This document shows positions 2,106 through 50,300 of a stretch of DNA of 64,000 nucleotides, one piece after another (position 1 is the stretch's first letter; each line of letters begins with the position of its first letter). Source of the DNA: Erysipelotrichaceae bacterium (GTDB taxonomy: Bacteria > Bacillota_I > Bacilli_A > RFN20 > CAG-449). Under the pieces are notes generated by a model. That model was not told the DNA's origin, searched no databases, and worked only from the letters and a program-made list of their open reading frames with translations. The stretch covers positions 30 through 64,029 of the forward strand of contig SVBA01000010.1 of NCBI GenBank assembly GCA_015059095.1, in the 5' to 3' direction. The position numbers and the translations under genes are program-made.

Positions 2106-2226
2106 AGCTTATAATATTCTAGATAAAGTAGATATAGTAATGGAAGAAGTTGTTATTAAATAACTTCTTTTTATTATCTTTAGATAAGAAATTTAAAAAA
2201 TGTAAAAATACTTTTTCTAAAACAGA

Positions 2227-2294
2227 AGACTTTTTAGTGAAAAACACCGACTCTACTGTGAGTAGAGTTGAGAGTAACCAAAAAGTAACTACCA
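2227..2294. repeat. intergenic palindromic repeat element, copy 1 (core ACTCTACT-GTG-AGTAGAGT at 2250-2268)
   Basis: About 68 bp and roughly 85% identical to copy 3 at 18773-18840 (AGACTTTTTAG...AAAAACACCGAYTCTACTGTGAGTAGAGTTGA...CTACCA). The palindromic core is shared with 14081-14101. Confidence 0.6.
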
Positions 2295-2344
2295 CCTATA
2301 TATAAAATTAACATATAATTTGATTAAGAAGAGTGGTGATTATA

Positions 2345-2938
2345 ATGTTTAAGGAAAAATTAAAAGAATTAAGAGAAAAGAATAAAATATCTCAATATGA
2401 ATTAAGTACAATTATTCATGTTTCTAGAGCTGCTATAGCAAAGTGGGAAAGTGGAAAAGGTATTCCAAATAAAGAGAATATAAAAGTTTTAGCAGATTAT
2501 TTTAAAGTTAGTAAAGAGTATTTATTAGATATTGATGATTTATATCAAGAACTAAATAAAAGAGACAAAATAAAATCTAATATAAAATATCATCTACCAG
2601 TTATCTTTTTATCAATTGTCTTATTAATCTTAACAGCAGTCGAATTATTTGTGTTTGTTAGGGAGGGGATACATATTGCAAACCCACGTTATTATCCTAA
2701 TTTATCTATATTAACAGTGCTTAAAGGTTGGTCACTTATTCCTATAGGTATTTACATTATAATGATCATATTTAATATTTTATTTATATACAATACTTGG
2801 GAAATATCTAATAAAATAAGATTAATAATTTGTGTTTTATGTTCTATATTAGTTTTAATTTTATTTATTACGACTTTCATAATATCTTATGTGTTAATTG
2901 AACCACAAAACTATGGAATGTTTTGGAAACCACATTAA
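2345..2938 (+). CDS. membrane-anchored XRE-family HTH transcriptional regulator (N-terminal HTH_3, C-terminal 3-4 TM helices)
   Basis: LKELREKNKISQYELSTIIHVSRAAIAKWESGKGIPNKENIKVLADYF is a Cro/C1-type HTH, followed by hydrophobic segments. SD GAGTGGTG lies 6 nt before ATG 2345. The ORF-track start at 2333 is GTG. Confidence 0.75.
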   Translation: MFKEKLKELREKNKISQYELSTIIHVSRAAIAKWESGKGIPNKENIKVLADYFKVSKEYLLDIDDLYQELNKRDKIKSNIKYHLPVIFLSIVLLILTAVELFVFVREGIHIANPRYYPNLSILTVLKGWSLIPIGIYIIMIIFNILFIYNTWEISNKIRLIICVLCSILVLILFITTFIISYVLIEPQNYGMFWKPH

Positions 2939-2951
2939 AAGGAGGTATTAA

Positions 2952-3695
2952 ATGATTAATGAATTATTATTAACAGTCGCTTTATTAAGCAACAATATAT
3001 CTTACATTTCTACGCCTAAGGGGTCTACTGTTACGGTGTATACCAATAATGAACTTAGTTCAATTCTAATTTCTCAATATAATCAAATTTCAGATGCATA
3101 TTTTACTTCTGATATAAGAATTTCAGATGCTTCAAAGATATATAATAATTATTCTTACACTTTTTATTCACAAAATATAGATGAAAACGAATATTGTATA
3201 GATGATGCTTATCTATATATTAATGATGGAAGTTACATAGAAGTACCATATTCACAAGTACAAGTAAGAGATAGAATTGTATATTTTGATGAAGATGATA
3301 ATATAGTACATTCAGGTGTAGTAAGAGGAACAACAGGACAAACACCTAATGGAGTATGTGGATATTCTAATACTGTATTAGTTCAATCTAAATGGGGATA
3401 TTATGGATTATATGAACATAGAGGAGATCAGTGTCCATATACTAGTTTAGTAAATGGTGGGGCAGCAACTTATGTAAAATTTTATAGATATAATATGTCT
3501 CATACTCATAGTTATTCCTATGATGTATTTGATTCTAAATATCATTATTCGTCATGTGAATGTGGAGATGTTATAGTAGAACATACATTTGAACTTCAAT
3601 CAATATTTCCTTTAAGTAATGAGTATGATCCAAATTACATACCTAGTTATGTATGTACTGATTGTGGATATGTATCTAGAACTGGTGGATTATAG
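2952..3695 (+). CDS. hypothetical Tyr/Asn/Ser-rich protein with a C-terminal 4-Cys module (paralog of the 3802 gene C-terminus)
   Basis: SD AAAGGAGG before ATG 2952. The C-terminus YHYSSCECG...H...YVCTDCGYVSRTGGL aligns with YHYNYCKCG...H...QYCTCGAENPYYNDFGGL of the next gene. No catalytic Cys motif was found. Confidence 0.55.
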   Translation: MINELLLTVALLSNNISYISTPKGSTVTVYTNNELSSILISQYNQISDAYFTSDIRISDASKIYNNYSYTFYSQNIDENEYCIDDAYLYINDGSYIEVPYSQVQVRDRIVYFDEDDNIVHSGVVRGTTGQTPNGVCGYSNTVLVQSKWGYYGLYEHRGDQCPYTSLVNGGAATYVKFYRYNMSHTHSYSYDVFDSKYHYSSCECGDVIVEHTFELQSIFPLSNEYDPNYIPSYVCTDCGYVSRTGGL

Positions 3696-3801
3696 GAGTA
3701 ATAGTTTATGAAGAATAGATATTTATTTATAGGTGATTTGACTTTTAGTATAGAAAGGTAAATATGTTATTTTATTCTTATATTATAGAAAGGAGAAAGA
3801 T

Positions 3802-5019
3802 ATGAATAAATTTATTACTATTATTACTTTAAGTGGATTATTATTTGGAATGTCATCATTGGCTTTTACTGGTCTTCCTCATAAACATTCACATTATAAA
3901 AAGACTTCGAGTTATAAAGATTTAGGTGGTGGATCCGATGAAATATCAACATATGCAGTTAGTTCGAGTAAAACAAATTTAGTTAAATATTATACGAATT
4001 TAACTAATAATTTTGGAAACAATTTTTCTCAGTCTACTTGTGGATATGTTGCGATGGGTATGTTATTAACTTATTATGATGCTATATTAAATGGAAATAT
4101 CGTACCAAGTGTTTATGATGCAAAGAGTAATTATTCATCGATTAAATTAGATACATCTACAGCTGAATCACCAGGTTCGGATTTTGATACCAATTCTTCT
4201 TTTGCAAATCCACAAATTTATTGGAATCATTTAAATGTTACTCAACATACCAACTTACACGCAAAATTGTGCATTATCGGAACTACTTATGATAATTCGA
4301 CAAGCGGTTTAGAAAATATGACTTATATGAATGTATTTGGGACAAATTTAGATATTAATTTATATACATTAAATTCATATTTACAATCGTTAAGTACATC
4401 TTTCAGTTACACAATTGACTATAAGGCCTATGATAAAAATGTGGCTACGTATGGAAACGCAACTTCTTACGAACAAGTATTTGATTTTATTATTGATGAA
4501 ATTGATGCAGGAAGACCTGTTCTAATTGGTTTTAATGGGCATGCAAGAATTGCTTATAATTATGGATATACAAATGAACATATTTTTTATTTACATGAAG
4601 GTTATGTTGATACATTTAAACCACGATTAACTACAAATGGTCAATTAAAACTTTCATATTTAAATAGTAATGAAAGTTCGATTTCCGGTATTACTAAATT
4701 ATCAGCTATTTCTTTACATTTTGATGATTCGACTACAGTTTCTCCTGGATATAATTATCATTCAACATATTATAATGATGATAATACTTTTTTTGGAGCG
4801 TATACAAATCATAATACACATTATTATACATATAATTGTAGATATATAAGTAACAATTATCATTATAATTATTGTAAATGTGGATTATATCAACAAGAAT
4901 TGCATGCTTATAGGAAAGATATTACCTATTCTGAGCAATATTGTACTTGTGGAGCAGAAAATCCATATTATAATGATTTTGGTGGATTATCGAGTAAGGA
5001 GGAAGAATATGAAGAGTAA
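3802..5019 (+). CDS. secreted papain-fold cysteine peptidase-like protein (C39-like domain) with a C-terminal 4-Cys module
   Basis: Signal peptide MNKFITIITLSGLLFGMSSLAF. QSTCGYVAMGMLLTYYD matches the C39/C39-like Cys motif (Q..CG..A..M.L.YYG). GRPVLIGFNGHARIAYNYGY matches the His motif. SD AAAGGAGAAAG before ATG 3802. Confidence 0.6.
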   Translation: MNKFITIITLSGLLFGMSSLAFTGLPHKHSHYKKTSSYKDLGGGSDEISTYAVSSSKTNLVKYYTNLTNNFGNNFSQSTCGYVAMGMLLTYYDAILNGNIVPSVYDAKSNYSSIKLDTSTAESPGSDFDTNSSFANPQIYWNHLNVTQHTNLHAKLCIIGTTYDNSTSGLENMTYMNVFGTNLDINLYTLNSYLQSLSTSFSYTIDYKAYDKNVATYGNATSYEQVFDFIIDEIDAGRPVLIGFNGHARIAYNYGYTNEHIFYLHEGYVDTFKPRLTTNGQLKLSYLNSNESSISGITKLSAISLHFDDSTTVSPGYNYHSTYYNDDNTFFGAYTNHNTHYYTYNCRYISNNYHYNYCKCGLYQQELHAYRKDITYSEQYCTCGAENPYYNDFGGLSSKEEEYEE

Positions 5020-5869
5020 AAATTTGTTTTTAAAATTAATGATAGCATTTTTATCTATAACTAATGTATCTTGTGATTCGTCTTTTGTTTCATCAAGTGA
5101 TTCAACAAAAATATATTTAGATCCTTTAACTATGACATTAGAAGATTATAAGGGGATAGACTTCCGTGATGTAGTTGATGGTGAAGTTAAGTTGAGAGAA
5201 CCTAATGATGTAAGTAATATAAAAATTGAAGATGATAGAGAACCATTAGAAAATGAAATTAAGATACCAATATATATTTATGAAAATGATAAATTCGATG
5301 TAGCAAGATATCAGTATTTTATTAAAGGTGAAGATTATAGAGGATATCCGTACTCTAGTAATCATGTAGATACAGAAAGTAGTTGGGAAAAAGAAGGACG
5401 AGATTGGGGAGGAATAGGTTCAAAACCATATATAATTGGTTTTTATGAAGATTCTAAATTTGAAAAATTAATTGATCCTAATAAATTTATATCATTAGAT
5501 GAATCTATTAAAGAAATTCATGTTAGAAGAGCACAAGAACATTATGTTCCGAATCAAATGTATACTGGAACTTATAAATCAGAAAACTTAAATGTAGTTG
5601 CAGATGGAAGAAATTTTGATATTTATTTTGATAATATTCATTATAAAATTATAGGTAAAGGTACAGGTGGAGAATTTCACATAAAAGAAATGTATATAGA
5701 TAATGAATTAGTAGAAGATTTGGAGAATTATGAATTTTTACCAGAAATTATTTCATATTCAATTAACCATGCTATTTATTTTTGTTTCTGGAAAAATGGA
5801 ACAACTGTTATTCCGTTTTCGGAAATGGCAATTAGTGAAATAGCATATAGTGCAATAGCGAATTTATAA
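5009..5869 (+). CDS. hypothetical lipoprotein (final gene of the 2345-5869 operon)
   Basis: SD AGGAGG precedes ATG 5009, giving an 11-nt overlap with the upstream gene. Signal peptide with lipobox-like ...LSITNVSC. The ORF-track start at 4880 lies inside the upstream gene. Confidence 0.6.
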   Translation: MKSKNLFLKLMIAFLSITNVSCDSSFVSSSDSTKIYLDPLTMTLEDYKGIDFRDVVDGEVKLREPNDVSNIKIEDDREPLENEIKIPIYIYENDKFDVARYQYFIKGEDYRGYPYSSNHVDTESSWEKEGRDWGGIGSKPYIIGFYEDSKFEKLIDPNKFISLDESIKEIHVRRAQEHYVPNQMYTGTYKSENLNVVADGRNFDIYFDNIHYKIIGKGTGGEFHIKEMYIDNELVEDLENYEFLPEIISYSINHAIYFCFWKNGTTVIPFSEMAISEIAYSAIANL

Positions 5870-5910
5870 TTAACTTAATAAAAAGTCATACTTTTAGAAG
5901 CTATATAATT

Positions 5911-5942
5911 TAGACTACCATTAGGTAGTCTATTTTATTTTG
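5911..5942 (+). terminator. rho-independent terminator of the 2345-5869 operon
   Basis: TAGACTACC-atta-GGTAGTCTA followed by TTTTATTTT. Confidence 0.75.
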
Positions 5943-6066
5943 TTTACAGTTTAACAAAAACTATAAAAAAATATGTTGTTTTTTAACTATATTATATATA
6001 TAATAAACCCATAAAGTTTAGTTTTACTAAACAAAATAATTACAATATTTAAACAAAGGAGGGAAT

Positions 6067-6600
6067 ATGAAGTTAGGTAAGAAGATAAAAGAACTCCGTA
6101 CTTTATGTAATCTAACTCAAGAAGAGTTAGGAAATCGTACAGAACTGACAAAAGGGTATATTTCGCAGATAGAAAATGATCTTACAGAACCTTCAATTTC
6201 TACTCTGGAAGATATACTTAAGGCGTTAGGAACTAATCTAGGAGATTTTTTCTCTAGTCAAAATACTAATCAAGTTGTATTTAAGAATGGTGATTATTTT
6301 GATAAGGAAGCCGATGGTTATAAAATTAGGTGGCTTGTTCCAAATGCACAAAAAAATGAAATGGAACCTATATTAGTAACTATATATCCGAATGGACAAA
6401 CTGATAATGATTATCCTCATGAGGGTCAAGAATTTGGATATGTATTAGAAGGTGAATTATTATTGTGTATCGATAATAAGAAACTGAAAGTTAAAAAGGG
6501 TGAAACATTCTATTATGATTCTAACAAGAATCATTATTTAAAAAATGTTAAAGATAAGATATGTCGAGTTATTTGGGTTAGTAGCCCACCAAACTTTTAA
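6067..6600 (+). CDS. HTH (XRE) plus cupin-domain transcriptional regulator, PuuR-like
   Basis: N-terminal HTH_3 (LTQEELGNRTELTKGYISQIEN). The C-terminal cupin_2 fold (GYVLEGELLL...) is the architecture of polyamine-responsive PuuR regulators. It lies immediately upstream of potABCD. Confidence 0.8.
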   Translation: MKLGKKIKELRTLCNLTQEELGNRTELTKGYISQIENDLTEPSISTLEDILKALGTNLGDFFSSQNTNQVVFKNGDYFDKEADGYKIRWLVPNAQKNEMEPILVTIYPNGQTDNDYPHEGQEFGYVLEGELLLCIDNKKLKVKKGETFYYDSNKNHYLKNVKDKICRVIWVSSPPNF

Positions 6601-6617
6601 TTAATGGAGGTAGTAAT

Positions 6618-8132
6618 ATGAAAAAAGAAGATGTAATTTTAGAACTAATTAATGTCAATAAAAAATATGACGATAGTTTTGCAGTAGAAAATTTTAATTT
6701 GTATGTTAAAAAGGGTGAATTCGTTACTTTCTTAGGTCCTTCTGGTTGTGGTAAAACAACAACTTTAAGAATGATTGCAGGTTTTGAATTACCTACTAGT
6801 GGTGAAATTTTATTAAATGGTAAAGATATTTCTCAATTACCTCCATTTAAAAGACCATTAAATACAGTTTTCCAAAGATATGCATTATTCCCACATTTAG
6901 ATGTTTATGATAATATTGCATTTGGTTTAAAACTTAAAAAGATTCCATATAAAACAAAAGATAAAAAAGGAAATTTGGTAACTAAATTAAGAAAATTTAC
7001 TAGAGAAGAAATTGATGAAAAAGTTACTAAAGCTTTAAAAATTGTTGACCTAGAAGCTTTTGAAGGAAGAAATGTTTCTACTCTTTCAGGTGGTCAACAA
7101 CAAAGAGTAGCGATTGCTAGAGCAATCGTTAATGAACCTGAAATTTTATTATTAGATGAACCTTTAGGTGCTTTAGACTTAAAAATGAGAAAAGAAATGC
7201 AACTTGAGTTAAAAGAAATGCATAGAAAATTAGGTATCACATTTATCTATGTTACTCATGATCAAGAAGAAGCTTTAACAATGTCAGATACAATTGTCAT
7301 TATGAAAGATGGACAAATTCAACAAATTGGTACTCCACTTGATATTTATAATGAACCTCAAAATGCTTTCGTTGCAGACTTTATTGGTGAATCGAATATT
7401 TATTCTGGAACAATGATTGGTGAAAAGAAAGTTAGATTCTTAGGTAAACAATGGGATTGTGTTGACTCTTTCCCAATTAATGAAAAAGTTGATGTTGTTG
7501 TTAGACCTGAAGATATTAAAATTAAACCATTAGGTGAAGGAAATGTTAATGCAAAAATCGTTAATAAGATTTTCAAAGGAATTAACTATCAATTTACTGC
7601 GATGGTTGGTAATAATGAAGTATTAATTCAATCAACTAATGATAGAGCAATCAATCAAGAAGTTTCTTTATCTATTAAACCTGAATTAATTCACATTATG
7701 AAAAGAGAATTCTCTACTAATAGATACAGTGATGCTTACATTGATAAAAACAACCAAGTTGTATTTGCTGGAGTTTCTTGGGATTGTGATGTAACTCAAA
7801 TTTTACCAGGATCTTCATTAAATGAAGAAGGATATTTAATTTCTAAAGATGGTAAAAAATATGATTTAAGTGATTTTGATGTTATCGCAGATATTGATAT
7901 GCACGATATTGAAATTAGTGATGACTTAGAAGATGGTAATATAGTTGGTGAAATTATCCAAATGGTTTGGAAAGGTGACCACTATCAATTAATTGTTAGA
8001 ACAGAGGATGAAGAAGACTTTGTTGTTGATACAGTTTGGACTTGGAATGAATTTGATAAAGTAAGTGTAAAAATTGACCCTAAAAAGATTAAATTAAAAG
8101 CAAAGGCAGATTTATCAAAATATGAGATTTAA
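6618..8132 (+). CDS. potA: spermidine/putrescine ABC transporter ATP-binding protein with a C-terminal extension of about 130 aa
   Basis: Walker A GPSGCGKTT, Q-loop, signature LSGGQQQRVAIARA, Walker B ILLLDEPLGALD. Length is 504 aa versus about 370 typical. Confidence 0.9.
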   Translation: MKKEDVILELINVNKKYDDSFAVENFNLYVKKGEFVTFLGPSGCGKTTTLRMIAGFELPTSGEILLNGKDISQLPPFKRPLNTVFQRYALFPHLDVYDNIAFGLKLKKIPYKTKDKKGNLVTKLRKFTREEIDEKVTKALKIVDLEAFEGRNVSTLSGGQQQRVAIARAIVNEPEILLLDEPLGALDLKMRKEMQLELKEMHRKLGITFIYVTHDQEEALTMSDTIVIMKDGQIQQIGTPLDIYNEPQNAFVADFIGESNIYSGTMIGEKKVRFLGKQWDCVDSFPINEKVDVVVRPEDIKIKPLGEGNVNAKIVNKIFKGINYQFTAMVGNNEVLIQSTNDRAINQEVSLSIKPELIHIMKREFSTNRYSDAYIDKNNQVVFAGVSWDCDVTQILPGSSLNEEGYLISKDGKKYDLSDFDVIADIDMHDIEISDDLEDGNIVGEIIQMVWKGDHYQLIVRTEDEEDFVVDTVWTWNEFDKVSVKIDPKKIKLKAKADLSKYEI

Positions 8133-11568: not shown

Positions 11569-14028
11569 ATGCTTAATAATTATAATAGACATGTTATTAG
11601 TAGTCCTGAAGAGATGATTAAATTAGTTGAAAAAGGTGTTGTACCTTGGGTGATTGATGTTCCTATACATCTAGAATCTAAAATAAAGGAAACTATTAAT
11701 AAATATATAATTTATAAAAATGAACGTCATTGGAAAAAAGAGCGTTCTAAAAATCATGGTTATGCTTATTTAGAAACTTATTTATATTTAACAGGAAAAT
11801 ATGGATATGAAGTAGATTCATTATATGATACTTATTTTAATATGAAACGTATTAAGAAATTTCCAAGTTTTTGTTTCATGCTTGCTATACAAAATTCTTT
11901 AAGAGAAAGTAAACAAACTTGGAATGTAAGTTATATCTATAATATTTTAGAAAAAGGCGTTAAATTAAAAGATCCTGAATGTCTATATACAGTTGGAAGA
12001 ATGTATATGGAAGGAATGAAATATACTAAAAATATTAAAAAAGGTATTAAACTTTTATCATTAGCGGCAAAACAAAATCATCCTGGAGCATTATCTCTTC
12101 TTTCTAATTATTATTCAAATGGGATGTTAGTTAAACAAGACTTAAAGAAGGCAAATAAACTAATGGAAAAGGCTAAAGAAATAGGTATTGGAAATGATTT
12201 TTATTCGAAACATCCTAGTTTTGTTCCATTTTGGGAATTTATGGTTAGTGTAGATCCGGAAAATATATTATTTGATTCTATTTTAACTAAGGTAAGTAAA
12301 TTAACTCCTAATAAGAATGTGACATTTACTAAATTATCAGATATTGCAAAACATTATGGTGAGAGTCATAAAAATGTATCTTACAAGATTCCTATGGAAG
12401 ATAGGGAGAGATTATTTAATGAACTAAAAAATAAAGTAGATGAATTTAGAAATAATGATTATCCTTTTGAATATGAAAAGTATCTTTTAGGGTATATTAA
12501 TTTTTTAAATAATGGTTATGGATGTGAAAAAGATCCAAATGAAATATTTAAAACGGTTATGGACTTAGATTTTATTGGTTCACAAAAACACTATAATATT
12601 AAAGGAATTTGTTATGAACTAGGAATTGGAGTAGAAAAGAATATAGAGCTAGCTAAAGAATATCTTTTAAAGGCTAGTGAACTTCCTTCAACTCAATCAA
12701 TTGCTTTTATTAATTTATCCAAATTATTTAGAGATAAAAAAAATGGTGTTTATGATGAAAAATTGGCTTTTGATTATGCTTTAAAAGCTTTAGAAAGTGG
12801 TGATGTTAGATCCATAATCGAACTTGCAAATTGCTATATGTTTGGAGTTAATGTAAAGGCAGATGAATATAAGGCAATTAATTTATTAAGATATGGGGAT
12901 AAATTAAATTATTTACCTTCTTTAAAAACTTTAGGAATTAGTTTTTTATATGGTAGAGGGGCAATTATTAAAAGTATTAGAAGTGCGATTGATACACTTA
13001 AAAAATGTGTAGAAAAATATGATGATACAGAATCTATGTATTATTTAGGTTTAGCATATAAAGGAAATATGCAATATGATTTATCTTTTGAATGTTTTAC
13101 TAAGTGTGAAAAGAAAAATTTTAAAAAGGTATATTTAGAATTAGCGATTGCTTATGATCTTGGATTAGGTGTGAAAAAAGATCAATCTAAGGCTCTTCAT
13201 TATTATTCTAAAATTGAAGATGTAGAATCTTCTGGTGCTGCACTTAATAATTTAGGTGTTATGTATAAATTAGGAAAAAGTGTACCAAAAGATTATGATA
13301 AAGCTTTCTACTACTATAAAAAAGCATATGAATTAAAAGTAAATCAAGCATATAAGAATTTGGCGAATTGTTATTTTGAAGGAATAGGAACAGAAGTTAA
13401 TATTAATAGAGGATTTGAAATTCTTGATGAAGGAATTAAAGATAATGTTTCTTCTTGTTATATAAGATATGGATATATTTATGAAAAAGGGTTATACGGC
13501 ATAACAGTAGATACTAAAAAAGCATTTGATTATTATTCTAAAGCTGTTGAATTGAAAGATCCTGATGGATATTATTTTTTAGCATGGTGCTACAATAAAG
13601 GTATTGGTTGTATTAAGAGTGATTACAACTTTATTAATTATTTGAAACTAGCAGATAAGAATGGTTATCGAGAAATTAATTATGCATTTGGCTTTGCTTA
13701 TTACTTTGGAGTAGGTGTTAGTAAAGATTATAAAGAAGCAGATAAATATTTGAAAAAGTCAATTGAAAATTGTGAAGGATATGATGCGAATTGTTATGGT
13801 ATTTTAGGTCATATATATGAGATTTTTTATAAGGATGGACATGCTGCTTTTCAATATTATAAAAAAGCTGCAGATTTAGATCATTCTTATGGCCATCTAG
13901 CTCTGGGAACTTGTTATTTTAATGGAATAGGCTGCATTAAAGATTTAGCTTTGGCTAGAGTTCATTGGAAAAAAGCAGTTGAATTAGGTGATAACAGAGC
14001 AAAAGATTTTTTAGAAAAATATAGATAA
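11569..14028 (+). CDS. Sel1/TPR-like repeat protein (819 aa) with a unique N-terminal domain of about 180 aa
   Basis: More than ten Sel1-type repeats (for example AALNNLGVMYKLGKSVPKDYDKAFYYYKKAYEL; YYLGLAYKG...). No signal peptide. SD AAGAAGGTGG before ATG 11569. Confidence 0.7.
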   Translation: MLNNYNRHVISSPEEMIKLVEKGVVPWVIDVPIHLESKIKETINKYIIYKNERHWKKERSKNHGYAYLETYLYLTGKYGYEVDSLYDTYFNMKRIKKFPSFCFMLAIQNSLRESKQTWNVSYIYNILEKGVKLKDPECLYTVGRMYMEGMKYTKNIKKGIKLLSLAAKQNHPGALSLLSNYYSNGMLVKQDLKKANKLMEKAKEIGIGNDFYSKHPSFVPFWEFMVSVDPENILFDSILTKVSKLTPNKNVTFTKLSDIAKHYGESHKNVSYKIPMEDRERLFNELKNKVDEFRNNDYPFEYEKYLLGYINFLNNGYGCEKDPNEIFKTVMDLDFIGSQKHYNIKGICYELGIGVEKNIELAKEYLLKASELPSTQSIAFINLSKLFRDKKNGVYDEKLAFDYALKALESGDVRSIIELANCYMFGVNVKADEYKAINLLRYGDKLNYLPSLKTLGISFLYGRGAIIKSIRSAIDTLKKCVEKYDDTESMYYLGLAYKGNMQYDLSFECFTKCEKKNFKKVYLELAIAYDLGLGVKKDQSKALHYYSKIEDVESSGAALNNLGVMYKLGKSVPKDYDKAFYYYKKAYELKVNQAYKNLANCYFEGIGTEVNINRGFEILDEGIKDNVSSCYIRYGYIYEKGLYGITVDTKKAFDYYSKAVELKDPDGYYFLAWCYNKGIGCIKSDYNFINYLKLADKNGYREINYAFGFAYYFGVGVSKDYKEADKYLKKSIENCEGYDANCYGILGHIYEIFYKDGHAAFQYYKKAADLDHSYGHLALGTCYFNGIGCIKDLALARVHWKKAVELGDNRAKDFLEKYR

Positions 14029-14080: not shown

Positions 14081-14122
14081 AACTCTACTGTGAGTAGAGT
14101 TACTTTTACTCAAAGTAGAGTT
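14081..14122. repeat. palindromic repeat element, copy 2 (AACTCTACT-GTG-AGTAGAGTT plus a third half-site AGTAGAGTT 21 bp downstream)
   Basis: Perfect 9-bp inverted repeat at 14081-14101. An additional direct copy of the right arm lies at 14114-14122, two helical turns away. Confidence 0.55.
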
Positions 14123-16413: not shown

Positions 16414-18444
16414 ATGAAATATATTGAGTGGCAAGGTTTCATTCCAGGAAAATGGAGTAATGATGAAGTTGATGTTCGTGATTTTATACAAAAAAACTAT
16501 ACTCCTTATGAAGGTGATGGTTCGTTTTTAAAACCTGCGACAGAAGCAACAAAAAAACTTTGGGATGAAATATTAGAATTATCAAGAAAAGAAAGAGAAG
16601 CAGGTGGTGTTTTAGATGCTGATACTTCAGTTGTTTCAAATTTAACATCTCATGCTCCTGGATATATTGATAAAGATTTAGAAAAAATAGTAGGTTTACA
16701 AACTGATAAACCGTTTAAAAGAGCCTTACAACCTTTTGGTGGTATTAAAATGGCAGAACAAGCTTTAAGCCTTTATGGATATCAAATTGATCCAGAAATT
16801 AAACATATTTTTACTAACTACAGAAAAACTCATAATGATGGAGTATTTGATGTTTATACTCCAGAGATGAGATTAGCTAGAAGAGCGCATATTTTAACAG
16901 GTTTACCAGATGCTTATGGTAGAGGTAGAATTATTGGTGACTATAGAAGAGTAGCTTTATATGGTGTTGATTATTTAATTAAGCAAAAAGAAGAAGATAA
17001 ATCTTTAATCGATGGAGAAATGACTCCAGAAAAAATTAGAAATAGAGAAGAAATTGCTGATCAAATTAAAGCTTTAAAAAGATTAAAATTAATGGCAGAA
17101 TCTTATGGATGTGATATTTCTAAACCTGCAGGAACGGCTAAAGAAGCAATTCAAGCAACTTATTTTGGTTATTTAGGTGCAATTAAAGATCAAAATGGAG
17201 CAGCTATGTCAATTGGTAGAATTTCCACATTCTTAGATATTTATATTCAAAGAGATCTAGATAATGGGTTAATTGATGAAACAGAAGCTCAAGAGTTAAT
17301 TGATCATTTAGTAATGAAATTAAGAATTGTTAAATTTATGAGAATTCAATCGTATAATGAATTATTCTCTGGTGATCCAACTTGGGTTACTGAAGCTATT
17401 GGTGGTATGGGAGTTGATGGAAGAACTTTAGTTACTAAAAACTCATTCCGTATCTTACATACATTAAGAAACTTAGGACCTGCTCCAGAACCAAATTTAA
17501 CAGTATTATGGAGTAAGAATTTACCTCTTAATTTCAAAAGATTCTGTGCTCAATTATCTATTGATACTTCTTCAGTTCAATATGAATCAGATGATTTAAT
17601 GAGACCAGAAATGGGAGATGATTATGCAATTGCGTGTTGTGTATCTGCAATGAGAGTAGGTAAAGATATGCAATTCTTTGGTGCAAGAGCTAACTTGGCA
17701 AAATGTTTATTATACGCATTAAATGGTGGTGCTGATGAAATGATGCTTGATAAAGAAACAGGTAAACCATTACAAGTTTCTCCAGTATATGCAAGAGTAA
17801 CTTCTGATGAAGCTTTAGATTATAATGATGTTATTCAAAAATTCGAACAAATGACTGAATGGTTAGCAGGTGTATATGTAAATGTATTAAATATCATTCA
17901 CTATATGCACGATAAATATGCTTATGAAGCTATTGAAATGGCTCTTCATGATTCTGAAGTAAGAAGATTCTTTGCAACAGGTATTGCTGGATTAAGTTGT
18001 GCTGCTGACTCATTAAGTGCAATTAAATATGCGAAAGTATATCCTATTAGAAATGAACATGGTATCATCGTCGATTTTAAAACAGAAGGTGATTTCCCAA
18101 AATATGGTAATAATGATGATCGAGTAGATTCTATTGCAGTATATTTAGTTAAATCATTTATGAATAAGATTAAAAAACATTTCTCTTATAGAGAAAGTGT
18201 AAAAACTATGTCAATTCTTACTATTACTTCTAACGTAGTATATGGTAAAAATACTGGTAATACTCCAGATGGAAGAAGAGCAGGTGAAGCTTTAGCTCCT
18301 GGAGCAAATCCAATGCATGGTAGAGATAGTAATGGTGCATTAGCATCTCTTGAATCAGTAGCAAAATTACCTTATAGCTATTCTAGAGATGGTATCTCAA
18401 ATACATTCTCAATTACACCTAACTCATTAGGTAAAGATGATTAA
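16414..18444 (+). CDS. pflB: pyruvate formate-lyase catalytic chain, lacking the C-terminal glycyl-radical domain, which is encoded separately
   Basis: Near-colinear with E. coli PflB from [15 protein letters not shown] through the active site CCVS...ANPMHGRD to [11 protein letters not shown]. It ends with TAA at 18442-18444, where canonical PflB continues for about 80 more residues. Confidence 0.95.
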
Positions 18445-18460
18445 GAAAGGAAGGTTAATT

Positions 18461-18697
18461 ATGTCAAATAGTAAAGTTGATAATTTAGTAAATATGCTTG
18501 ATGCATATGTAGAAAATGGAGGACATCATCTTAATGTTAACGTATTTAGCCGTGAAACATTATTAGATGCTCAAGCTCATCCTGAGAAATATCCTCAATT
18601 AACAATTAGAGTAAGTGGATATGCAGTTAACTTCATTAAACTATCTAAAGAACAACAAGATGAAGTTATTTCAAGAACTATTCACGAATCAATGTAG
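18461..18697 (+). CDS. separately translated glycyl-radical domain of pyruvate formate-lyase (GrcA/YfiD-like small subunit)
   Basis: [78 protein letters not shown] matches the PflB C-terminus, including the RVSGY glycyl radical motif. SD GAAAGGAAGG lies 6 nt before ATG 18461. It is in a different frame from pflB. An alternative ATG at 18437 lacks an SD. Confidence 0.8.
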
Positions 18698-18772: not shown

Positions 18773-18840
18773 AGACTTTTTAGCAAAAAACACCGATTCT
18801 ACTGTGAGTAGAGTTGACAGTAGCAAAAAAGTCGCTACCA
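18773..18840. repeat. intergenic palindromic repeat element, copy 3 (core ATTCTACT-GTG-AGTAGAGT at 18796-18814)
   Basis: About 85% identical over 68 bp to copy 1, with the same flanks AGACTTTTTAG and CTACCA. It also contains a secondary hairpin GTAGC-aaaaaagtc-GCTAC. Confidence 0.6.
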
Positions 18841-19007: not shown

Positions 19008-21896
19008 ATGGAAATTAATGAAATTAAACATGGTTTTAAGTTAGTATCTATTAATTATGTAGAAGATATTAATTCTAACTTATATCAATATGAACATATT
19101 AAATCTGGAGGTAGAGTAGTTCATATTCAAAATGATGATCCACATTGTACATTTGCTATTGGATTTAGAACTTTGCCTAAAGATTCTACAGGTGTATGTC
19201 ATATTATTGAACACTCTTTATTATGTGGAAGTAAAAAATATCCATTAAAAGAACCATTTGTAAACTTATTAAAATCATCTTTAGCAACTTTCTTAAACGC
19301 ATTTACTGCATATGATTGGACAATGTATCCTTTTTCAAGTCAAGTTCCTCAAGATTTTGATAATATTCTTTCGATCTATTTAGATGCAGTATTTAATCCT
19401 ATTTCAATGATTGATAAGAAACCTTTCTTACAAGAAGGATGGCATTTAGAATTATTAAATAAAGAAGATTTACCAGTTATTAAAGGTGTAGTCTATAATG
19501 AAATGAAAGGTGCGACTTCTTCGGTTGATGATGTTTTAGAATCGACAGTAAATGAAATTATGTATAAAGATACAATCTATAGACATAATAGTGGTGGTGA
19601 TCCAGAAGTAATCCCAGAATTAACATATGAAGATTATGTTTCTTTCTATAAAGAACATTACACTCCACAAAATGCTTTAACTTTCTTCTATGGAGATATG
19701 GACATTGAAAAGAAATTAAAATATTTGAATGAAGAGTATTTTTCATCATTTACAAAAAGTGAAAAGGATATTGTAATTGATCCTCAAACTCCACATATTA
19801 ATACAACATATAAAAAAGAGTATGAAGTAGGTAAAGATGAAGATATTAAAGATAAGACTTATGTAGGATTATGTTATTCTTTAGGTAGTTATGAAAATTA
19901 TGAAGATATCTGTGCTATGTCATTAATCTTTAATTCGATTATGTCTAATAATGATTCTCCTTTAAAAAAGTCAATTTTAGATAAAAAGTTTGGTAAAAAT
20001 GTTAGATATAGTATTGATGATAATAATGTTGTTCCTTCATTACATATTGATTTATTAGAAACAGATTCATCTAAAAAAGAAGAATTTAAATTATTCTTTG
20101 AAGAACAAATTAGAAAGTTAGTTAATGAAGGAATTGATAGAGAATTATTAACTTCGACTTTAAATTTCTCAGAATTTAAAGATAAAGAAAGAAACTTAAC
20201 TTCATCAAATAAAGGATTGAATTATGCTCTTTCTATAATTGGCCCATTTATTTATCGTTCTTCTTTGATTAATAGATTAGAATTTACTTCTATTAATAAA
20301 AGTTTAAGAGAAAAATTACAAACTTCATATTATGAAGATTTATTAGATAAATATATTTTAAAATCAAATCATTATGTTTTAGTTGAAGTGAATCCTTCAA
20401 AGACTTTAGGTGATGAAAGAAAAGCGAAAGTATTAAAACAAATGAAAGAAATTAAAGATAAGATGTCTAATAAAGAAATCGATGCTTTAATTAAGCAAAC
20501 TAGAGAATTAATCGCATATCAAAATAAAGTTGATACTAAAAAAGAATTAGATACTTTACCAAAATTATCAATAAAAGATATTCCTTCTAGAATTGATTAT
20601 CTAGATACTAAAAAGACTTCAATTAAAGGAATGAAAACTATTTATCATAATGTTCCAACTAATAAAATTGGTTATTTAAGAATGTATTTTTCATTAGATT
20701 GTGTGGAATTAGAAGATTTTCCATATGTTCGACTATTAAGAAGTTTATTATTAAATGTTAAAACAAAATCTTATACTCCTTATGAATTAATGAAAAATAT
20801 TAAAACTAATCTAGGATCATTTGTATTAAGTATAGCCAATAATCCTATTAATAGATATGAAACACGAATTGATTTTACTTTAGCTACTAGTGCATTATTA
20901 GAAAATATTAAATATATTCCTAATATTATTAATGAAGTTTTATTAACATCTAAGTTTACAAAAAATGAAGTTAAAACTATTTTAAATCAAACTGTTATGG
21001 GATTAAGACAAAGTTTAATTGAAAATGGTAATTCTCATGCGATTATGGAAGCTAGATCTGCATATAGTAGTTTTGCAAACTATGAAAATCATTATAAAAC
21101 TGGTATTGGAGTATATAATTTCTTTAAAGATTTATTAGATAATTTTGATTATAAAAAGATCAATGAAAAACTTGTTTTTATTTCTAAAAAGATTTTTTCT
21201 AAAAATAATGTAACTATCTCTCTTTCAGGGGATGAAGAAACTATTCAAGCATTAAAAGAAGAATGTAGAAATCTTAAATTTAGAAAAGTTAGTATTGAAA
21301 AAGTATTAAAACCTAATTTTAATGAACCTAAAAAAGAGGCATTAGTTGTACCTAGTGGAGTTTCTTATAATGTAATTGCAAGTAATCTAGAAGAAATTGG
21401 TCATGTCTTCTCCGGTAAAGATGTAGTCTTATCTCATATTCTTTCGTATGATTATTTATGGAATGAAATAAGAGTTAAAGGTGGAGCATATGGTGCAGGC
21501 TTTGCATTAACTAAAATTAATGATACATTCTTCTATTCTTATCGAGATCCTAATGTTAAGAATTCATATGATGTATATCGTAATATTATTAATTATTTAG
21601 ATGAATTTAATCCTAGTAAAAAAGAATTCATTAACTATGTTATTGGTGCAGTAGGAGGAATTTCTACTCCTAATTCAATTGTTCAATTAATTGATCAATG
21701 GGATATTAATTATCTAATTAACGTTACTAAGAAAGATAAAATCAAATTAAAGAAAGAAGCATTAAAAACTACATTAAAGGATATTAAAGATTATAAGAAA
21801 GTATTTACATATATGATGTCATCAAATAGTGAATATACAGTCGGTGAAGAGAATAAAATTAACGAATATCCATTTAATAAAGTTAATAAATTATAA
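19008..21896 (+). CDS. M16C-family zinc metallopeptidase (PreP/presequence-protease-like)
   Basis: Inverted zinc motif HIIEH followed by SLLCGSKKYPLKEPFVNLLKSSLATFLNAFTAYDWTMYPFSSQ, near-identical in pattern to PreP. C-terminal EIRVKGGAYGAGF...YSYRDPN block. Length 962 aa. Confidence 0.85.
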   Translation: MEINEIKHGFKLVSINYVEDINSNLYQYEHIKSGGRVVHIQNDDPHCTFAIGFRTLPKDSTGVCHIIEHSLLCGSKKYPLKEPFVNLLKSSLATFLNAFTAYDWTMYPFSSQVPQDFDNILSIYLDAVFNPISMIDKKPFLQEGWHLELLNKEDLPVIKGVVYNEMKGATSSVDDVLESTVNEIMYKDTIYRHNSGGDPEVIPELTYEDYVSFYKEHYTPQNALTFFYGDMDIEKKLKYLNEEYFSSFTKSEKDIVIDPQTPHINTTYKKEYEVGKDEDIKDKTYVGLCYSLGSYENYEDICAMSLIFNSIMSNNDSPLKKSILDKKFGKNVRYSIDDNNVVPSLHIDLLETDSSKKEEFKLFFEEQIRKLVNEGIDRELLTSTLNFSEFKDKERNLTSSNKGLNYALSIIGPFIYRSSLINRLEFTSINKSLREKLQTSYYEDLLDKYILKSNHYVLVEVNPSKTLGDERKAKVLKQMKEIKDKMSNKEIDALIKQTRELIAYQNKVDTKKELDTLPKLSIKDIPSRIDYLDTKKTSIKGMKTIYHNVPTNKIGYLRMYFSLDCVELEDFPYVRLLRSLLLNVKTKSYTPYELMKNIKTNLGSFVLSIANNPINRYETRIDFTLATSALLENIKYIPNIINEVLLTSKFTKNEVKTILNQTVMGLRQSLIENGNSHAIMEARSAYSSFANYENHYKTGIGVYNFFKDLLDNFDYKKINEKLVFISKKIFSKNNVTISLSGDEETIQALKEECRNLKFRKVSIEKVLKPNFNEPKKEALVVPSGVSYNVIASNLEEIGHVFSGKDVVLSHILSYDYLWNEIRVKGGAYGAGFALTKINDTFFYSYRDPNVKNSYDVYRNIINYLDEFNPSKKEFINYVIGAVGGISTPNSIVQLIDQWDINYLINVTKKDKIKLKKEALKTTLKDIKDYKKVFTYMMSSNSEYTVGEENKINEYPFNKVNKL

Positions 21897-47203: not shown

Positions 47204-47346
47204 AAAGATACCTCCATAATTAATATATATTGTAATGATTTATGGAAAATAATTCAAATTATTTTAAAAGGTTTGAAAAATATATATGAATATTTATTAC
47301 ATATATATTATAATATTGTAAATTAAGGTAAAGACAGGTGAAAATT

Positions 47347-50300
47347 ATGGAAGAAATTATTAGAACTTTAGTTGAAATGGATCCTAGTATGATTAGTCAA
47401 TATGTTGATTACTTCTTTTTAGCAATTGCTGCTGTTGGATTAATTGGCTTTATAATTGGCTTTATTAAAGGATTCTATAAAGAATCAACAACTTTTATTC
47501 TCACTGCTGTCTATTTTGTTTTACTAGCGTTTGTAAACAAATGGATATCAAGTGCGATTTATGAACTAGATATTACTAGTTTTGTACCTCAACTCCCTGA
47601 AGGGGTAAAAACGGTTGGGGATTACTTGAATTATATTTTATTAGATTTATGTGAAAAGAATGGAATAACCATTAGTAATTCTCAAGAGTTAGTAAATGCT
47701 ATTGTTTCTATAGCGTTAGCATTTATTAATTTAGTTGTATATCTTGTTTTACTACTCGCCGGTATTATTATTGTCGGGGTAGTAGATTTTATTGTATATT
47801 TTTTAATTGTAAGATTAATTGTTCCTAAATCAGCAAGAAAATATAGAAAGAAAAGATTATTTGGTGGAGGACTAGCGTTAATACGTTATGTAGTTGCATT
47901 CTCTTTACTATTATCTCCTTTCACTGCTATAGTCAACTCAACTGTTGGTAACTTGAGAGATGAAAATGGCAAAGTTCAAAGAAATGAACTCGATAATGAT
48001 TTCTATAATGCTTTAATGAATGTTTTAGAAGGATATAATAATTCAACTGTAGCTAAAGTTTTCTTTATTGTTGAAGATGAAGATGGTAGATCAATTGACG
48101 TAAGATTGATGGATTATATTACTAAATCTAAAATTGATGAAGAAACTGCTTTTTCTTTATACAATGAAATTGGCAATTTAGGTTCTTTAGCGATTGATGC
48201 TGTCTCTACTGGTTTTATTCAATCAACAAGTGCGATTGATTTAGCTTTATTATTACAAGCTGAATTTGTTGGACATGCGATTGATACTTTGGCTAAATCA
48301 ACTTTAGTACAAACAGTTTTATCTGTCGGTGTTACTTTAGCAGTTAACATGGATAAAGTTAAAGAATTTGTTGATTTGTCAAGTATTGATTTTATGCATG
48401 TGGATTGGAGTTCAACTTTAAATGCTGTTTCTACTGCTTATGAAGAATTATATGAAACTGGTTTAGTAGATGAAGTAATTGAAAATCCTGAAACTTTCTT
48501 AAATGATTTCTATCTTGATGGAGACCATGCTAATGGTATTAAAAATGCTCTAAAGAGTTTAGGAGATAATGAATTAATTTGTAAAATTATGCCTCCACTA
48601 ATTGCTTCTTTTATTTCTTCAATGAATAATCAATCTAGTGAAGAAAGTAATGGAGCAAAACGTTCTGATAATTTTGAAATTCCTGATGCTTTACAAGACG
48701 CGGATACATATAAAGATATTAGATGGGGTAGCGAACTAGCTAATTTATATGAGGTATTAGAAAATTTATCAAAACAATATTATGGTTATGAAAATGAACA
48801 TTTGACATTTAATATGATTAATACTTTACAACCAGATATTATTTTAAATGCTTTATTTGGTACAGGTATTGATTTTTCTAAAGAAGATGACACTTCTTAT
48901 AAGCAAGAATATGAACGCAACGTATTTGTTTATGGTGGAGAATATATTAATGAAGAAGTTACTCATAAACTTCCTGGTATTAAGAATATTTTAGGTGTTG
49001 ATACTTCTTCTACAGCAGGTTTATTGAACCTTCAAATCATTGATGTAATGTTTGAAAAAGATTTATTTAATGATTTTATTAGTTTATTAGACTTAAATCA
49101 ATTATTAAGTCTTGATGCAAATAAAATAGACTTGAATGAAGAAGTAGTAGATGTTGTTTCTAATTGGAAAAAAGTAGATTGGCAAAATGAACTTTCTGCA
49201 ATTGTGGATGTAGTATGTCCTATTATGAAATTAGTTGGTATTATTGGTGGGGAAAATGCTACTGTTAGTGAAGCAAAAAGAGCAGCATCTGAACCAGAAA
49301 TTGATTTAGATACAATTTTAGGTGATGATAGTTTGAATTGTTTAAAACGTGTAACTGATGTTTTGGTTGATTCACAAATCTTCAATGAAATTCTTCCAGA
49401 TGTATTAGAAGTTTATACTGATGATATGCAAGATGAATTAATTGAAGGTCTAGCTCTATCTGATTTGAACTTTACATATTTTGCATCTAATGATGATTCA
49501 ATGGTTAAAGAATTAAGAAGTTTCATTGATGATGTTGATACAATTAATGAAGATTTATCTTCATTATTAGATGATATCACTGGAGAGAATGCGATTGATG
49601 CATTGGTTAGTGATTGTGCAAAGGATCAATCTGTATTAGGTGAATTATTAAAAATTATTAAAGATAATCAAATCTTAAATAAACCTCTTACTCCAGAAGA
49701 AAAGTTAAATAATGTAAATACGACATTTACTAATGTTATGATTGGATTACTTTCTAATGGCGCTAATCCAGACAATACAATGAATATTTATAATATGACT
49801 GATGGTATGATAGAAATTGAAAAAGATACTATCGTTAATTTTGATAAGAATCCTGCTGGTTGGGATAATGAAATTGATGGAATCATTGGATTTATTGGGT
49901 CATTAAAAGATCCTAATGGAACAGAAGAACAAGTTATTCTAGACTTCGTATCTGGTAAAACAAGTGAAGATTTTGATTTGACAAATGAAATTTTTGGCTG
50001 TGGCAATGAAATTGAAAGAATTTTCGCAAGCGTCGATGATTCAGTAATTTTAAAAGAAGCATTCCCAAAAACTTTTGAAGGTTTACTTGGTGATACTTTT
50101 AAAGATGTAATCGGTGAAAATCCTGATTTCTATAATGTCGATAGTTGGGCTAGTGAAGGTCATTATTTTAACTTATTATTAGGTAGTATTGATGATTTAA
50201 GAGAAGGCGGACAAGATTTATCTTCTATTGATTGGATGAATGTTGAGGAAGCAAAATTAACTAATATATTAACTTCTTTATACAACACTCAATCAGTTGG

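Follow-up and report, generated by a model that had tools for sequence, protein, structure and literature searches.

What could link a secreted protease to a membrane-embedded transcription regulator encoded in the same operon? This question is raised by four adjacent genes, here named g1 to g4, in a 64,000-nucleotide (nt) stretch of DNA from an uncultured gut bacterium of the Erysipelotrichaceae (assembly GCA_015059095.1, contig SVBA01000010.1, positions 30 to 64,029). The whole stretch was analysed and is referred to as the window. The explanation that we favour, with a probability of roughly 40%, is that g1 and g2 constitute a split transmembrane regulator and sensor, which controls a swappable secreted protease (g3) and its cognate lipoprotein (g4). 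The genes and the terminator of the operon are the following (aa, amino acids; HTH, helix-turn-helix; TM, transmembrane):

2345–2938, plus strand: g1, 197 aa, XRE HTH domain and three predicted TM helices
2952–3695, plus strand: g2, 247 aa, NlpC/P60-CHAP-like domain and C-terminal His/Cys module
3802–5019, plus strand: g3, 405 aa, secreted clan-CA cysteine peptidase (C39_2/C10-like) and module
5009–5869, plus strand: g4, 286 aa, lipoprotein
5911–5932 with T-run (feature span to 5940), plus strand: intrinsic terminator closing the operon, 9-bp stem with four G-C pairs, 4-nt loop, tail TTTTATTTTG

The genes are tightly packed on one strand. The gap between g1 and g2 comprises 13 nt and that between g2 and g3 106 nt, and g3 and g4 overlap by 11 nt; of these values, an initial annotation of the locus had given the first as 14 nt and the others correctly. 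An AGGAG-type ribosome-binding site is located ahead of each of the four start codons, that of g4 inside g3. Five terminator-like sites were counted in the region, compared to 0.4 expected. Because of the spacing, the ribosome-binding sites and the terminator at the 3' end, it is plausible to assume that the four genes form a single conserved operon and are co-transcribed. The NCBI gene calls MBE6143283-86 have the same lengths of 197, 247, 405, and 286 aa. As had been stated previously, g2 and g3 are rich in Tyr and Asn: with 19.4% and 21.0%, respectively, they have the highest Tyr+Asn content of the window, whose proteins contain 11.6 ± 3.3% and whose G+C content is ~27%.

The first gene product has the architecture of a membrane-tethered regulator, as had been proposed. 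Residues 1–65 of g1 match HTH_3 (XRE/Cro-C1) with an E-value of 3.7e-15 and 56 bits (cut-off 23), and three hydrophobic segments follow (residues ~78–112, 120–152, and 153–188), which have Lys/Arg-rich flanks on the inside. A DNA-binding domain and TM helices are thus combined in one polypeptide. Given the cytoplasmic location of the flanks, the C-terminal tail NYGMFWKPH is predicted to be extracellular; its motif NYG(M/L)FWK is kept among the orthologues.

The most instructive evidence comes from the comparison with related loci (L001 and following numbers), of which a small sample of neighbourhoods was available. Orthologues of g1 with 38–72% identity are the first gene of every sister cassette, and g2 is the best-conserved cassette protein (57–80% identity). 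In the divergent relatives L011-13, the gene order recurs as g1, g2 (with intact Cys), an extra lipoprotein gene, g3, and g4, with identities of 38, 57, 39, and 31% for g1 to g4. In L031, L032/33, and L035, g1 and g2 are kept and a subtilisin of the Peptidase_S8 family is found in place of g3. In L031 and L032/33, g4 is replaced by the gene of an unrelated lipoprotein 3' of the S8 gene; the contig of L035 ends at the S8 gene. The S8 subtilisins end in the same His/Cys module as g2 and g3 (hidden Markov model (HMM) E-values of 1e-13 to 6e-10). In L034, g1 and g2 are followed by other genes, a cargo without the module. The cassette can be read as consisting of a constant half, g1 and g2, and an exchangeable cargo half, g3 and g4. 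As a separate observation, the L011 cassette lies between an AbiH-like gene (2505–3671) and a SymE-toxin-like gene (11905–12108), together with several small HTH genes, and has an island-type look.

In other bacteria, the two constant parts occur in a single polypeptide. The proteins P0199 and P0215 (~505 aa) consist of an HTH_3 domain, two TM segments, a CxxC...CxxC segment, a third TM segment, an intact g2-like domain, and the module. It is therefore most likely that g1 and g2 are a regulator and its sensor in split form, and the two proteins would accordingly be expected to interact. L004 contains two tandem sets of an HTH-TM gene, a lipoprotein gene, and a g2-like gene; one of the g2-like copies lacks both Cys and His. 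Furthermore, g2 homologues in L003 (6075–9170) and L038 (2628–5976; also L039) are the third gene in a row that begins with an ECF sigma factor and an anti-sigma-like TM protein and ends with a lipoprotein. In L038, this lipoprotein and the anti-sigma-like ectodomain, which are encoded on opposite sides of the g2 homologue, have 78% identity. Three findings connect g2-type domains with transmembrane signalling to transcription: the fusions, the split form seen in the window, and the sigma/anti-sigma neighbourhoods in which an ectodomain copies the lipoprotein partner of the hydrolase.

An unannotated domain of ~135 aa (YYMDVID...NFYVxxDG...YYS..AVDY), which we call P, was found directly beside g2-family genes, mostly as a lipoprotein. 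In L003 it forms the C-terminal ectodomain of the anti-sigma-like TM protein that follows the ECF sigma gene; elsewhere, it was counted in eight loci as a lipoprotein beside g2 homologues. Further copies are:

L001, 214–726: P domain
L002, 7295–7807: P domain
L004, 7218–7781: P domain
L006, 7335–7688: P domain
L036, 3480–3992: P domain
L040, 4917–5438: P domain
L040, 6586–7074: P domain
L010: possible P domain

The P domain was also looked for in g4 and in x181; there was no significant match (best E-value 5.5). In L010, which is from a metagenome-assembled genome of Clostridiales, two tandem serpin genes (4484–7107, minus strand) lie just downstream of a fused HTH-TM-g2-like gene; this may be coincidental.

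Which property of g2 would qualify it as a sensor? The following parts of the protein were delimited:

Residues 15–182, nt 2994–3497, plus strand: putative papain-fold domain, NlpC/P60-CHAP-like
Residues Asn66-Tyr67, nt 3147–3152, plus strand: nucleophile site, Cys-His in the family
Residues 183–243, nt 3498–3680, plus strand: C-terminal His/Cys module

The N-terminal ~170 residues represent a family of their own, which comprises 21 close relatives and, according to a profile search, 348 clusters at 90% identity. The consensus reads YNCHSYAW...GDxICYF...HSGIV...SKWG..GLYEHRGDQCPY (family alignments A1 and A3). In the window copy, NCHSYAW is changed to NNYSYTF: Cys66 is replaced by Asn and His67 by Tyr, so that the Cys-His catalytic pair of CHAP and NlpC/P60 enzymes is missing; His120 is retained. 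A match to PF05257 (CHAP) was obtained for one of 14 close relatives (E-value 0.0017) and is precomputed for two distant ones, and NCBI names one relative CHAP; a Pfam search did not recognise the family as a whole. The AlphaFold2 model of g2 has a predicted local distance difference test (pLDDT) score of 86. Its best low-rmsd (root-mean-square deviation) Foldseek matches were NlpC/P60, CHAP, C39, MepS, LytE, and RipD proteins with 3.7–5 Å over ~90–100 columns; with E-values of at least 0.01, these matches are weak. Sequence and family searches against the PDB gave no signal.

In the initial annotation, g2 had been taken for a g3 paralog without the Cys motif. This view had to be abandoned, because the N-terminal domain of g2 appears to belong to a different, NlpC/P60-CHAP-like lineage of papain-like proteins. 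Full-length paralogy was considered as well and rejected: both BLASTP and hhalign align only the C-terminal 50–60 residues of g2 and g3. In a neighbour-joining tree, the g2 copies without Cys fall in two separate clades; the nucleophile must therefore have disappeared on at least two occasions in this subfamily. Judged from these alignments, catalysis by g2 appears to be dispensable, and across the subfamily the protein appears to be maintained and not decaying. A protein that has repeatedly lost its nucleophile and is otherwise strongly conserved would suit a role in binding or sensing. The rule that a catalytic g2 needs a downstream lipoprotein, which dead copies lose, did not hold: in L031 and L032 the NCHSYAW motif is intact, and no lipoprotein is encoded between g2 and the protease.

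The module of ~60 aa that g2 and g3 have in common was recognised previously and reflects true homology: hhalign aligned the family alignments over 50 columns with a probability of 97.1% (E-value 5.3e-11). An alignment that comprised g2, g3, the fused proteins, and the S8 proteases gave the invariant pattern H-x13-H-x3-C-x(1,2)-C-x(6,7)-H-x(15-26)-C-x(1,2)-C. It contains seven invariant residues of ligand type, three His and four Cys; the former description as a 4-Cys module is thus right with respect to the Cys residues and incomplete with respect to the His residues. No protein of the window other than g2 and g3 has the module. It is nevertheless not special to this pair, since it is also the C-terminus of the S8 subtilisins in sister cassettes, and it occurs altogether on three enzyme classes. 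AlphaFold2 predicts short beta hairpins, with pLDDT values of 85–94 in g3. No Pfam or NCBIfam model recognises the module, and no zinc-ribbon HMM scored above threshold. By its pattern of His and Cys residues it is probably a metal-binding element, presumably for zinc, and may be of zinc-ribbon type; it appears to be a previously unannotated domain. In L026, a lipoprotein gene (5042–5767) upstream of a g3 homologue encodes H-x-Y...C-x-x-C motifs similar to the module (CSKHTHSYEW...HQECTICKEKQEY); it was missed by the module HMMs.

The presence of one and the same module on g2 and on whichever protease fills the third position could also mean that the protease, g3 or S8, cleaves g2 or the g1-g2 pair via the module and thus frees or activates the HTH domain, by analogy with anti-sigma factors under regulated proteolysis. 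The conserved extracellular tail of g1 and the existence of sigma/anti-sigma versions of the neighbourhood would suit such a proteolytic switch. We consider it very unlikely, however: the cassette contains no gene for a site-2 protease, L034 possesses g1 and g2 and no module-bearing protease, and XRE-type transmembrane regulators such as BcrR act in the membrane-bound state. With g1 and g2 as a split sensor, the module would instead serve a common function on g2 and on the protease: it would either hold them at the cell surface or allow g1-g2 to recognise them.

The cargo protease g3 is composed of the following parts:

Residues 1–23, plus strand: signal peptide, followed by a disordered linker
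Residues 55–300, nt 3964–4701, plus strand: catalytic domain with Cys80 (nt 4039–4041) and His247 (nt 4540–4542)
Residues 336–392, nt 4807–4977, plus strand: C-terminal His/Cys module

The Cys motif QSTCGYVAMGMLLTYYD and the His motif NGHARIAYNYGY, which the initial annotation had quoted, are present and contain Cys80 and His247. An exhaustive HMMER search (E ≤ 1e-3) gave 275 representative clusters at 50% identity, and 42 homologues were aligned. Cys80, His247, and Asn74 are invariant among them; Asn74, at position -6, is a candidate for the oxyanion-hole residue. In the AlphaFold2 model (pLDDT 82), Cys80 begins a helix (residues 80–95). A family-conserved Cys at a helix start and a downstream His characterise clan CA, and g3 is thus apparently an active secreted clan-CA peptidase. 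Among the 42 relatives, PF13529 (Peptidase_C39_2) was matched by 18 (best E-value 1.4e-6), PF03412 (Peptidase_C39) by 10 (best 1.1e-3), and PF01640 (Peptidase_C10) by 8 (best 9.4e-10). g3 itself had no Pfam match at E ≤ 1 and none in NCBIfam or in a sequence search of the PDB. The family is therefore better described as a sister of C39_2 and C10 than as a member, and the earlier designation as a C39-like papain-fold peptidase holds at the family level. The fold matches are weak: all top Foldseek hits in the PDB are papain-like cysteine peptidases, the best with an E-value of 6.5e-3. The only PDB-sequence signal for g2, g3, or g4, likewise weak, was an alignment of the g3 family profile with the catalytic-His segment of streptopain (E-value 0.023). 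A prodomain of ~100 aa is missing in g3; the signal peptide (residues 1–23) is separated from the catalytic domain, which starts at residue 55, by a short disordered linker, and residues 20–53 have pLDDT values below 50. Compared to L008, which is from the same species, the ratio of nonsynonymous to synonymous substitution rates (dN/dS) of g3 is 0.12. A literature search on the C39_2 member YvpB gave nothing useful.

The matches to C39 and C39_2, although weak, and the occurrence of GG(L/I) near the C-termini of g2 and g3 raise the question of whether g3, in the manner of bacteriocin-processing peptidases, cleaves a double-glycine leader off a secreted peptide or off g2. A role in the processing or export of a secreted substrate had indeed been suggested for the locus. 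C39 peptidases proper are N-terminal domains of ABC exporters, whereas g3 stands alone and begins with a signal peptide of its own, and its neighbourhood contains no conserved precursor gene; the 62-aa open reading frame (ORF) upstream lies outside the conserved block. Moreover, the GG is not kept in the modules of the S8 and fused proteins, and the best C10 match of the family (9.4e-10) is stronger than its best C39 match (1.1e-3). A C39-type maturation is therefore hardly credible, and there is no sign of C39-type peptide export either. The sole ABC transporter encoded nearby is PotABCD, in a separate operon.

The fourth gene product is a lipoprotein, as had been predicted: its signal peptide ends in the relaxed lipobox NVSC with Cys22. 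Searches of Pfam, NCBIfam, PADLOC, and PHROG found no relatives, and the best PDB-sequence match had an E-value of 0.19. An orthologue with 31% identity occupies the same position in L011, and the dN/dS value of g4 compared to L008 is 0.10. A lipoprotein gene on the same strand directly adjoins the g3-family gene in all seven assessable loci (window, L011, L015, L020, L023, L026, and L030). With respect to adjacency, g4 resembles the inhibitors of the Staphostatin, Spi, and Bfi families, owing to its 11-nt overlap with g3 and the preservation of this arrangement in L011. By analogy, g4 is most likely a membrane-anchored inhibitor, immunity protein, or docking partner of the protease, and it may inhibit g3. 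The initial annotation had also considered a protease/inhibitor pair; nothing indicates that g2 is an inhibitor of g3.

The exchange of a protease together with an unrelated lipoprotein is also what would be expected of an antagonism cassette. There, bacteriolysin-like hydrolases of the g2, g3, and S8 types would be directed against competitors, the module would mediate target binding or delivery, the lipoproteins would provide immunity at the surface, and g1 would be the switch. The lipoproteins are diverse and non-homologous, and L030 contains an array of three lipoprotein genes. The cassette evolves faster than its housekeeping neighbours (dN/dS 0.1–0.5, with 0.30 for g1, compared to ~0 for potA, potB, and the cupin regulator gene); the loss of the nucleophile and a frameshift in the module resemble decaying toxins; the context is variable or island-like, given the break in synteny with L008 at ~2103 and the AbiH and SymE genes near the L011 cassette; and anti-sigma ectodomains that copy a lipoprotein partner would suit the sensing of an incoming hydrolase. 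A precedent is BreG, a transmembrane regulator that controls bacteriocin synthesis (PMC10269533). On the other hand, neither a dedicated secretion system nor a known toxin/immunity family was found, nor any PADLOC, PHROG, phage, or plasmid link. Furthermore, g2 is strongly conserved even when catalytically dead, and a hydrolase domain fused to a membrane-anchored HTH protein fits a diffusible toxin poorly. We regard this explanation as tentative and rather unlikely. The broader idea that the cassette belongs to a defence system, a phage, or a plasmid was dismissed, because the PADLOC and PHROGs scans gave generic HTH matches only and phage matches were absent. In searches of plasmid sequences, g3 had no match and a distant g2 relative two weak ones only.

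The reading of g1 and g2 as a split sensor can be put together as follows. g1 would place its XRE HTH domain in the cytoplasm and cross the membrane with three TM segments, and g2, presumably exported, would be the extracellular subunit for sensing or binding. g1 would control the promoter of the operon. g3, with its intact Cys80/His247 dyad and without a prodomain, would be the secreted cargo protease; g4, translationally coupled to it, would inhibit the protease, protect from it, or dock it, analogous to Spi, the staphostatins, and Bfi. In a wider version, which we advance with considerable reserve and hold to be rather improbable, the locus represents one form of a hitherto undescribed type of envelope circuit, present in gut Bacillota, by which cells sense their own or incoming hydrolases. 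Secreted hydrolases of the CHAP-like, C10/C39-like, and S8 types would be tagged by the module and bound by cognate lipoproteins. A hydrolase-like domain would be fused to or split from an XRE TM regulator, or a lipoprotein domain would be copied onto an anti-sigma factor; pseudo-enzymes such as the g2 of the window would be dedicated sensor subunits.

Several observations weigh against the split-sensor reading. At the sequence level, the fused proteins have only the HTH domain in common with g1 (E-value 4e-5); the fusion is therefore architectural evidence and no proof of orthology. The export of g2 is uncertain, since its N-terminus (MINELLLTVALLS...) has only weak hydrophobicity and no positively charged n-region. 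L008 and L009, from two independent assemblies of this species, share a 1-nt deletion by which the module of g2 is truncated, and the dN/dS value of g2 compared to L008 is 0.54. It may thus be that g2 is decaying in this species rather than sensing. The gap of 106 nt between g2 and g3 has room for an internal promoter. The lipoproteins beside g3 relatives are mutually unrelated, and lipoprotein-like ORFs account for ~10% of the ORFs in the loci examined. With 286 aa, g4 differs from Spi, staphostatin, and Bfi inhibitors, which comprise ~110–140 aa and are lipocalin-like barrels or propeptide mimics; sequence similarity is absent. Finally, the names given by NCBI are only generic: g1 is a 'helix-turn-helix transcriptional regulator', and g2 to g4 are 'hypothetical'. 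The deletion itself is found in L008 (9141–9803) and L009 (1–231), at a site equivalent to window position ~3581; the resulting frameshift leads to a product of 220 aa.

The loss of both Cys and His from the motif of g2 and the frameshift in two strains would be easily understood if the locus were an ordinary operon for a nutritional or host-directed protease. In that case g3 would scavenge peptides under regulation by g1, g2 would be a remnant, g4 would be unrelated, e.g. a binding protein, and the module would have a stabilising function in secreted proteins of this clade. The genome of the bacterium looks fermentative (amylase, GH77, AdhE, PflB), most g3-family genes elsewhere are without g1 or g2, and the module's occurrence on three enzyme classes is also in line with this simple explanation. 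It does not account for g1 and g2 as the constant pair across cassettes with g2 as the best-conserved member, for the fusion proteins and the recurrence of sigma/anti-sigma genes beside g2 relatives, or for a g4 that keeps its position, its overlap with g3, and the signature of purifying selection. We therefore judge it unlikely and retain the split regulator and sensor as the favoured explanation.

The control of the operon would be exerted in the region upstream of g1:

2190–2344, plus strand: conserved upstream/promoter region with palindrome ACTCTACTGTGAGTAGAGT, motif AAAAGTAACTACCAC, and TATAAT box

This region can be aligned with a second copy of the repeat and with L008, and the segment AAAAGTnnCTACCAC...TATAAT recurs upstream of g1 in L031, L032, L034, and L035. 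It is no more than a candidate operator or promoter. As had been stated, copy 1 of the palindrome precedes the operon (2250–2268). Two further copies exist in the window (14082–14100 and 18796–18814), all three being intergenic; the palindrome is therefore a dispersed repeat and not an operon-specific site. Its interpretation as the operator of this operon was also rejected because it is missing upstream of g1 in sister cassettes. Copies 1 and 3 lie inside a conserved element of ~110 nt that ends in TATAAT and precedes g1 in one case and an M16-type peptidase gene (19008–21896) in the other. The palindrome reads as a terminator on the minus strand, though the flanking genes are on the plus strand. 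An Rfam scan of the leader and the intergenic regions yielded nothing credible, and the idea of an RNA element there was dropped.

From nt 2103 on, the window has 97.5% identity with the loci L008 and L009, from which it differs upstream of that point. Synteny with L008 begins exactly at nt 2103 (L008 ~8290), and the left edge of the cassette is for this reason regarded as a rearrangement point. Upstream of it, the window contains an SPFH/Band_7 gene, rpsU, and the 62-aa ORF, and L008 contains rplM-rpsI, an NTP_transf_2/HepT pair, and a kinase gene. Two further features of the window were observed at a distance from the operon. An ORF of 2236 aa (47332–54042, plus strand) had no Pfam match at E ≤ 1e-5. 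A pyruvate formate-lyase-like gene appears to be split into a 676-aa ORF (16414–18444, plus strand) and an overlapping 86-aa ORF (18437–18697, plus strand). The latter holds the C-terminal glycyl-radical segment and may result from a frameshift or a sequencing error or encode a separate small glycyl-radical protein.

The components of the operon are of known kinds, namely a clan-CA peptidase, an NlpC/P60-like pseudo-enzyme, a transmembrane XRE regulator, and a lipoprotein. For the combination, no annotated family or system was matched in Pfam, NCBIfam, PADLOC, or PHROGs, in agreement with the initial annotation, which knew no characterised family of this architecture. The same four resources do not cover the His/Cys module, the cassette of constant regulator and variable protease, the split or fused regulator-hydrolase pair, or the anti-sigma ectodomain that copies a lipoprotein, and these features appear to be undescribed. 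They concern large families of secreted proteins labelled hypothetical, with the 275 g3 and 348 g2 clusters given above, from uncultured gut Bacilli with small genomes (RF39, Anaeroplasmataceae, Erysipelotrichaceae), whose secreted proteases and wall hydrolases may act on proteins of the host, the diet, or competitors. It can be hypothesised that a new extracellular His/Cys domain moves among three unrelated classes of hydrolases, that the split and fused pairs illustrate how a transmembrane XRE regulator could gain an extracellular sensor, and that protease-lipoprotein pairs are exchanged as units, among which new protease inhibitors may be found. An anti-sigma ectodomain that duplicates a neighbouring lipoprotein suggests a general 'hydrolase sensing', comparable to that of lysozyme by RsiV. 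Even if the ordinary protease operon were the true explanation, four hypothetical genes would be correctly annotated and a new peptidase subfamily added.

How does the locus compare with known systems? With Peptidase C39 and C39_2 (PF03412 and PF13529), g3 has in common the Cys motif at a helix start (xxCGxxAxxMxLxYY), which is followed by the His motif. It differs in the absence of a fused ABC transporter and in its export by a signal peptide; a GG-leader substrate is not evident. Closer in organisation are the C10 and C47 systems, i.e. streptopain SpeB with Spi, the staphopains with the staphostatins, and Bacteroides Bfp with Bfi. A regulator gene near the protease gene is likewise known there, as the RopB gene adjoins speB. 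The operon regulator considered here is a membrane-embedded XRE protein and not an Rgg protein. Like these enzymes, g3 is a secreted cysteine protease, presumably with a papain fold, and a partner gene directly adjoins it and is apparently co-transcribed. The relation to streptopain is further indicated by the eight relatives that match PF01640 and by the alignment of the family profile to its catalytic-His segment. In contrast to streptopain, g3 stays below every Pfam threshold, lacks the prodomain of ~100 aa, and carries the additional C-terminal module. Inhibitor genes lie beside C10 and C47 protease genes and are co-transcribed with them, and some of the inhibitors, including some Bfi proteins, are lipoproteins (PMC2873492), as g4 is predicted to be. 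Since position and coupling are alike and size and sequence are not, g4 may be said to work like these inhibitors, not to be a member of their families.

The g2 family resembles CHAP (PF05257) and NlpC/P60 proteins in its Cys...His architecture (NCHSYAW ... HSG), and some members match CHAP; catalytically dead members such as RipD of M. tuberculosis exist in both. Different from these families, the window copy of g2 is devoid of the nucleophile, the family as a whole goes unrecognised by Pfam, and g2 bears a C-terminal His/Cys module and is genetically tied to membrane-bound regulators. For g1, a counterpart is BcrR of Enterococcus, which detects bacitracin directly via its four TM helices; BcrR-like XRE transmembrane regulators act while membrane-bound. 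BcrR and BreG both exemplify an established class, that of transmembrane one-component regulators (PMC10269533). g1 shares with them the N-terminal XRE-type HTH domain followed by TM helices in one polypeptide, and it heads an operon that it presumably controls. Compared to BcrR, it has three instead of four TM helices, and it is constantly accompanied by g2, whose counterpart in other species is part of the regulator polypeptide.

A further parallel is provided by anti-sigma sensors whose ectodomains bind enzymes or resemble them, such as RsiV of the RsiV-sigmaV system, which senses lysozyme, and the RsgI factors of C. thermocellum. In the window, an XRE-TM protein takes the place of the sigma/anti-sigma pair, and there is no sequence relationship to RsiV or RsgI. 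However, distant g2 homologues are found beside ECF sigma/anti-sigma-like pairs, one ectodomain of which duplicates the lipoprotein partner of the hydrolase. Common to these systems and to the operon would be an extracellular domain, putatively protein-binding in the case of g2, that is wired to transcription.

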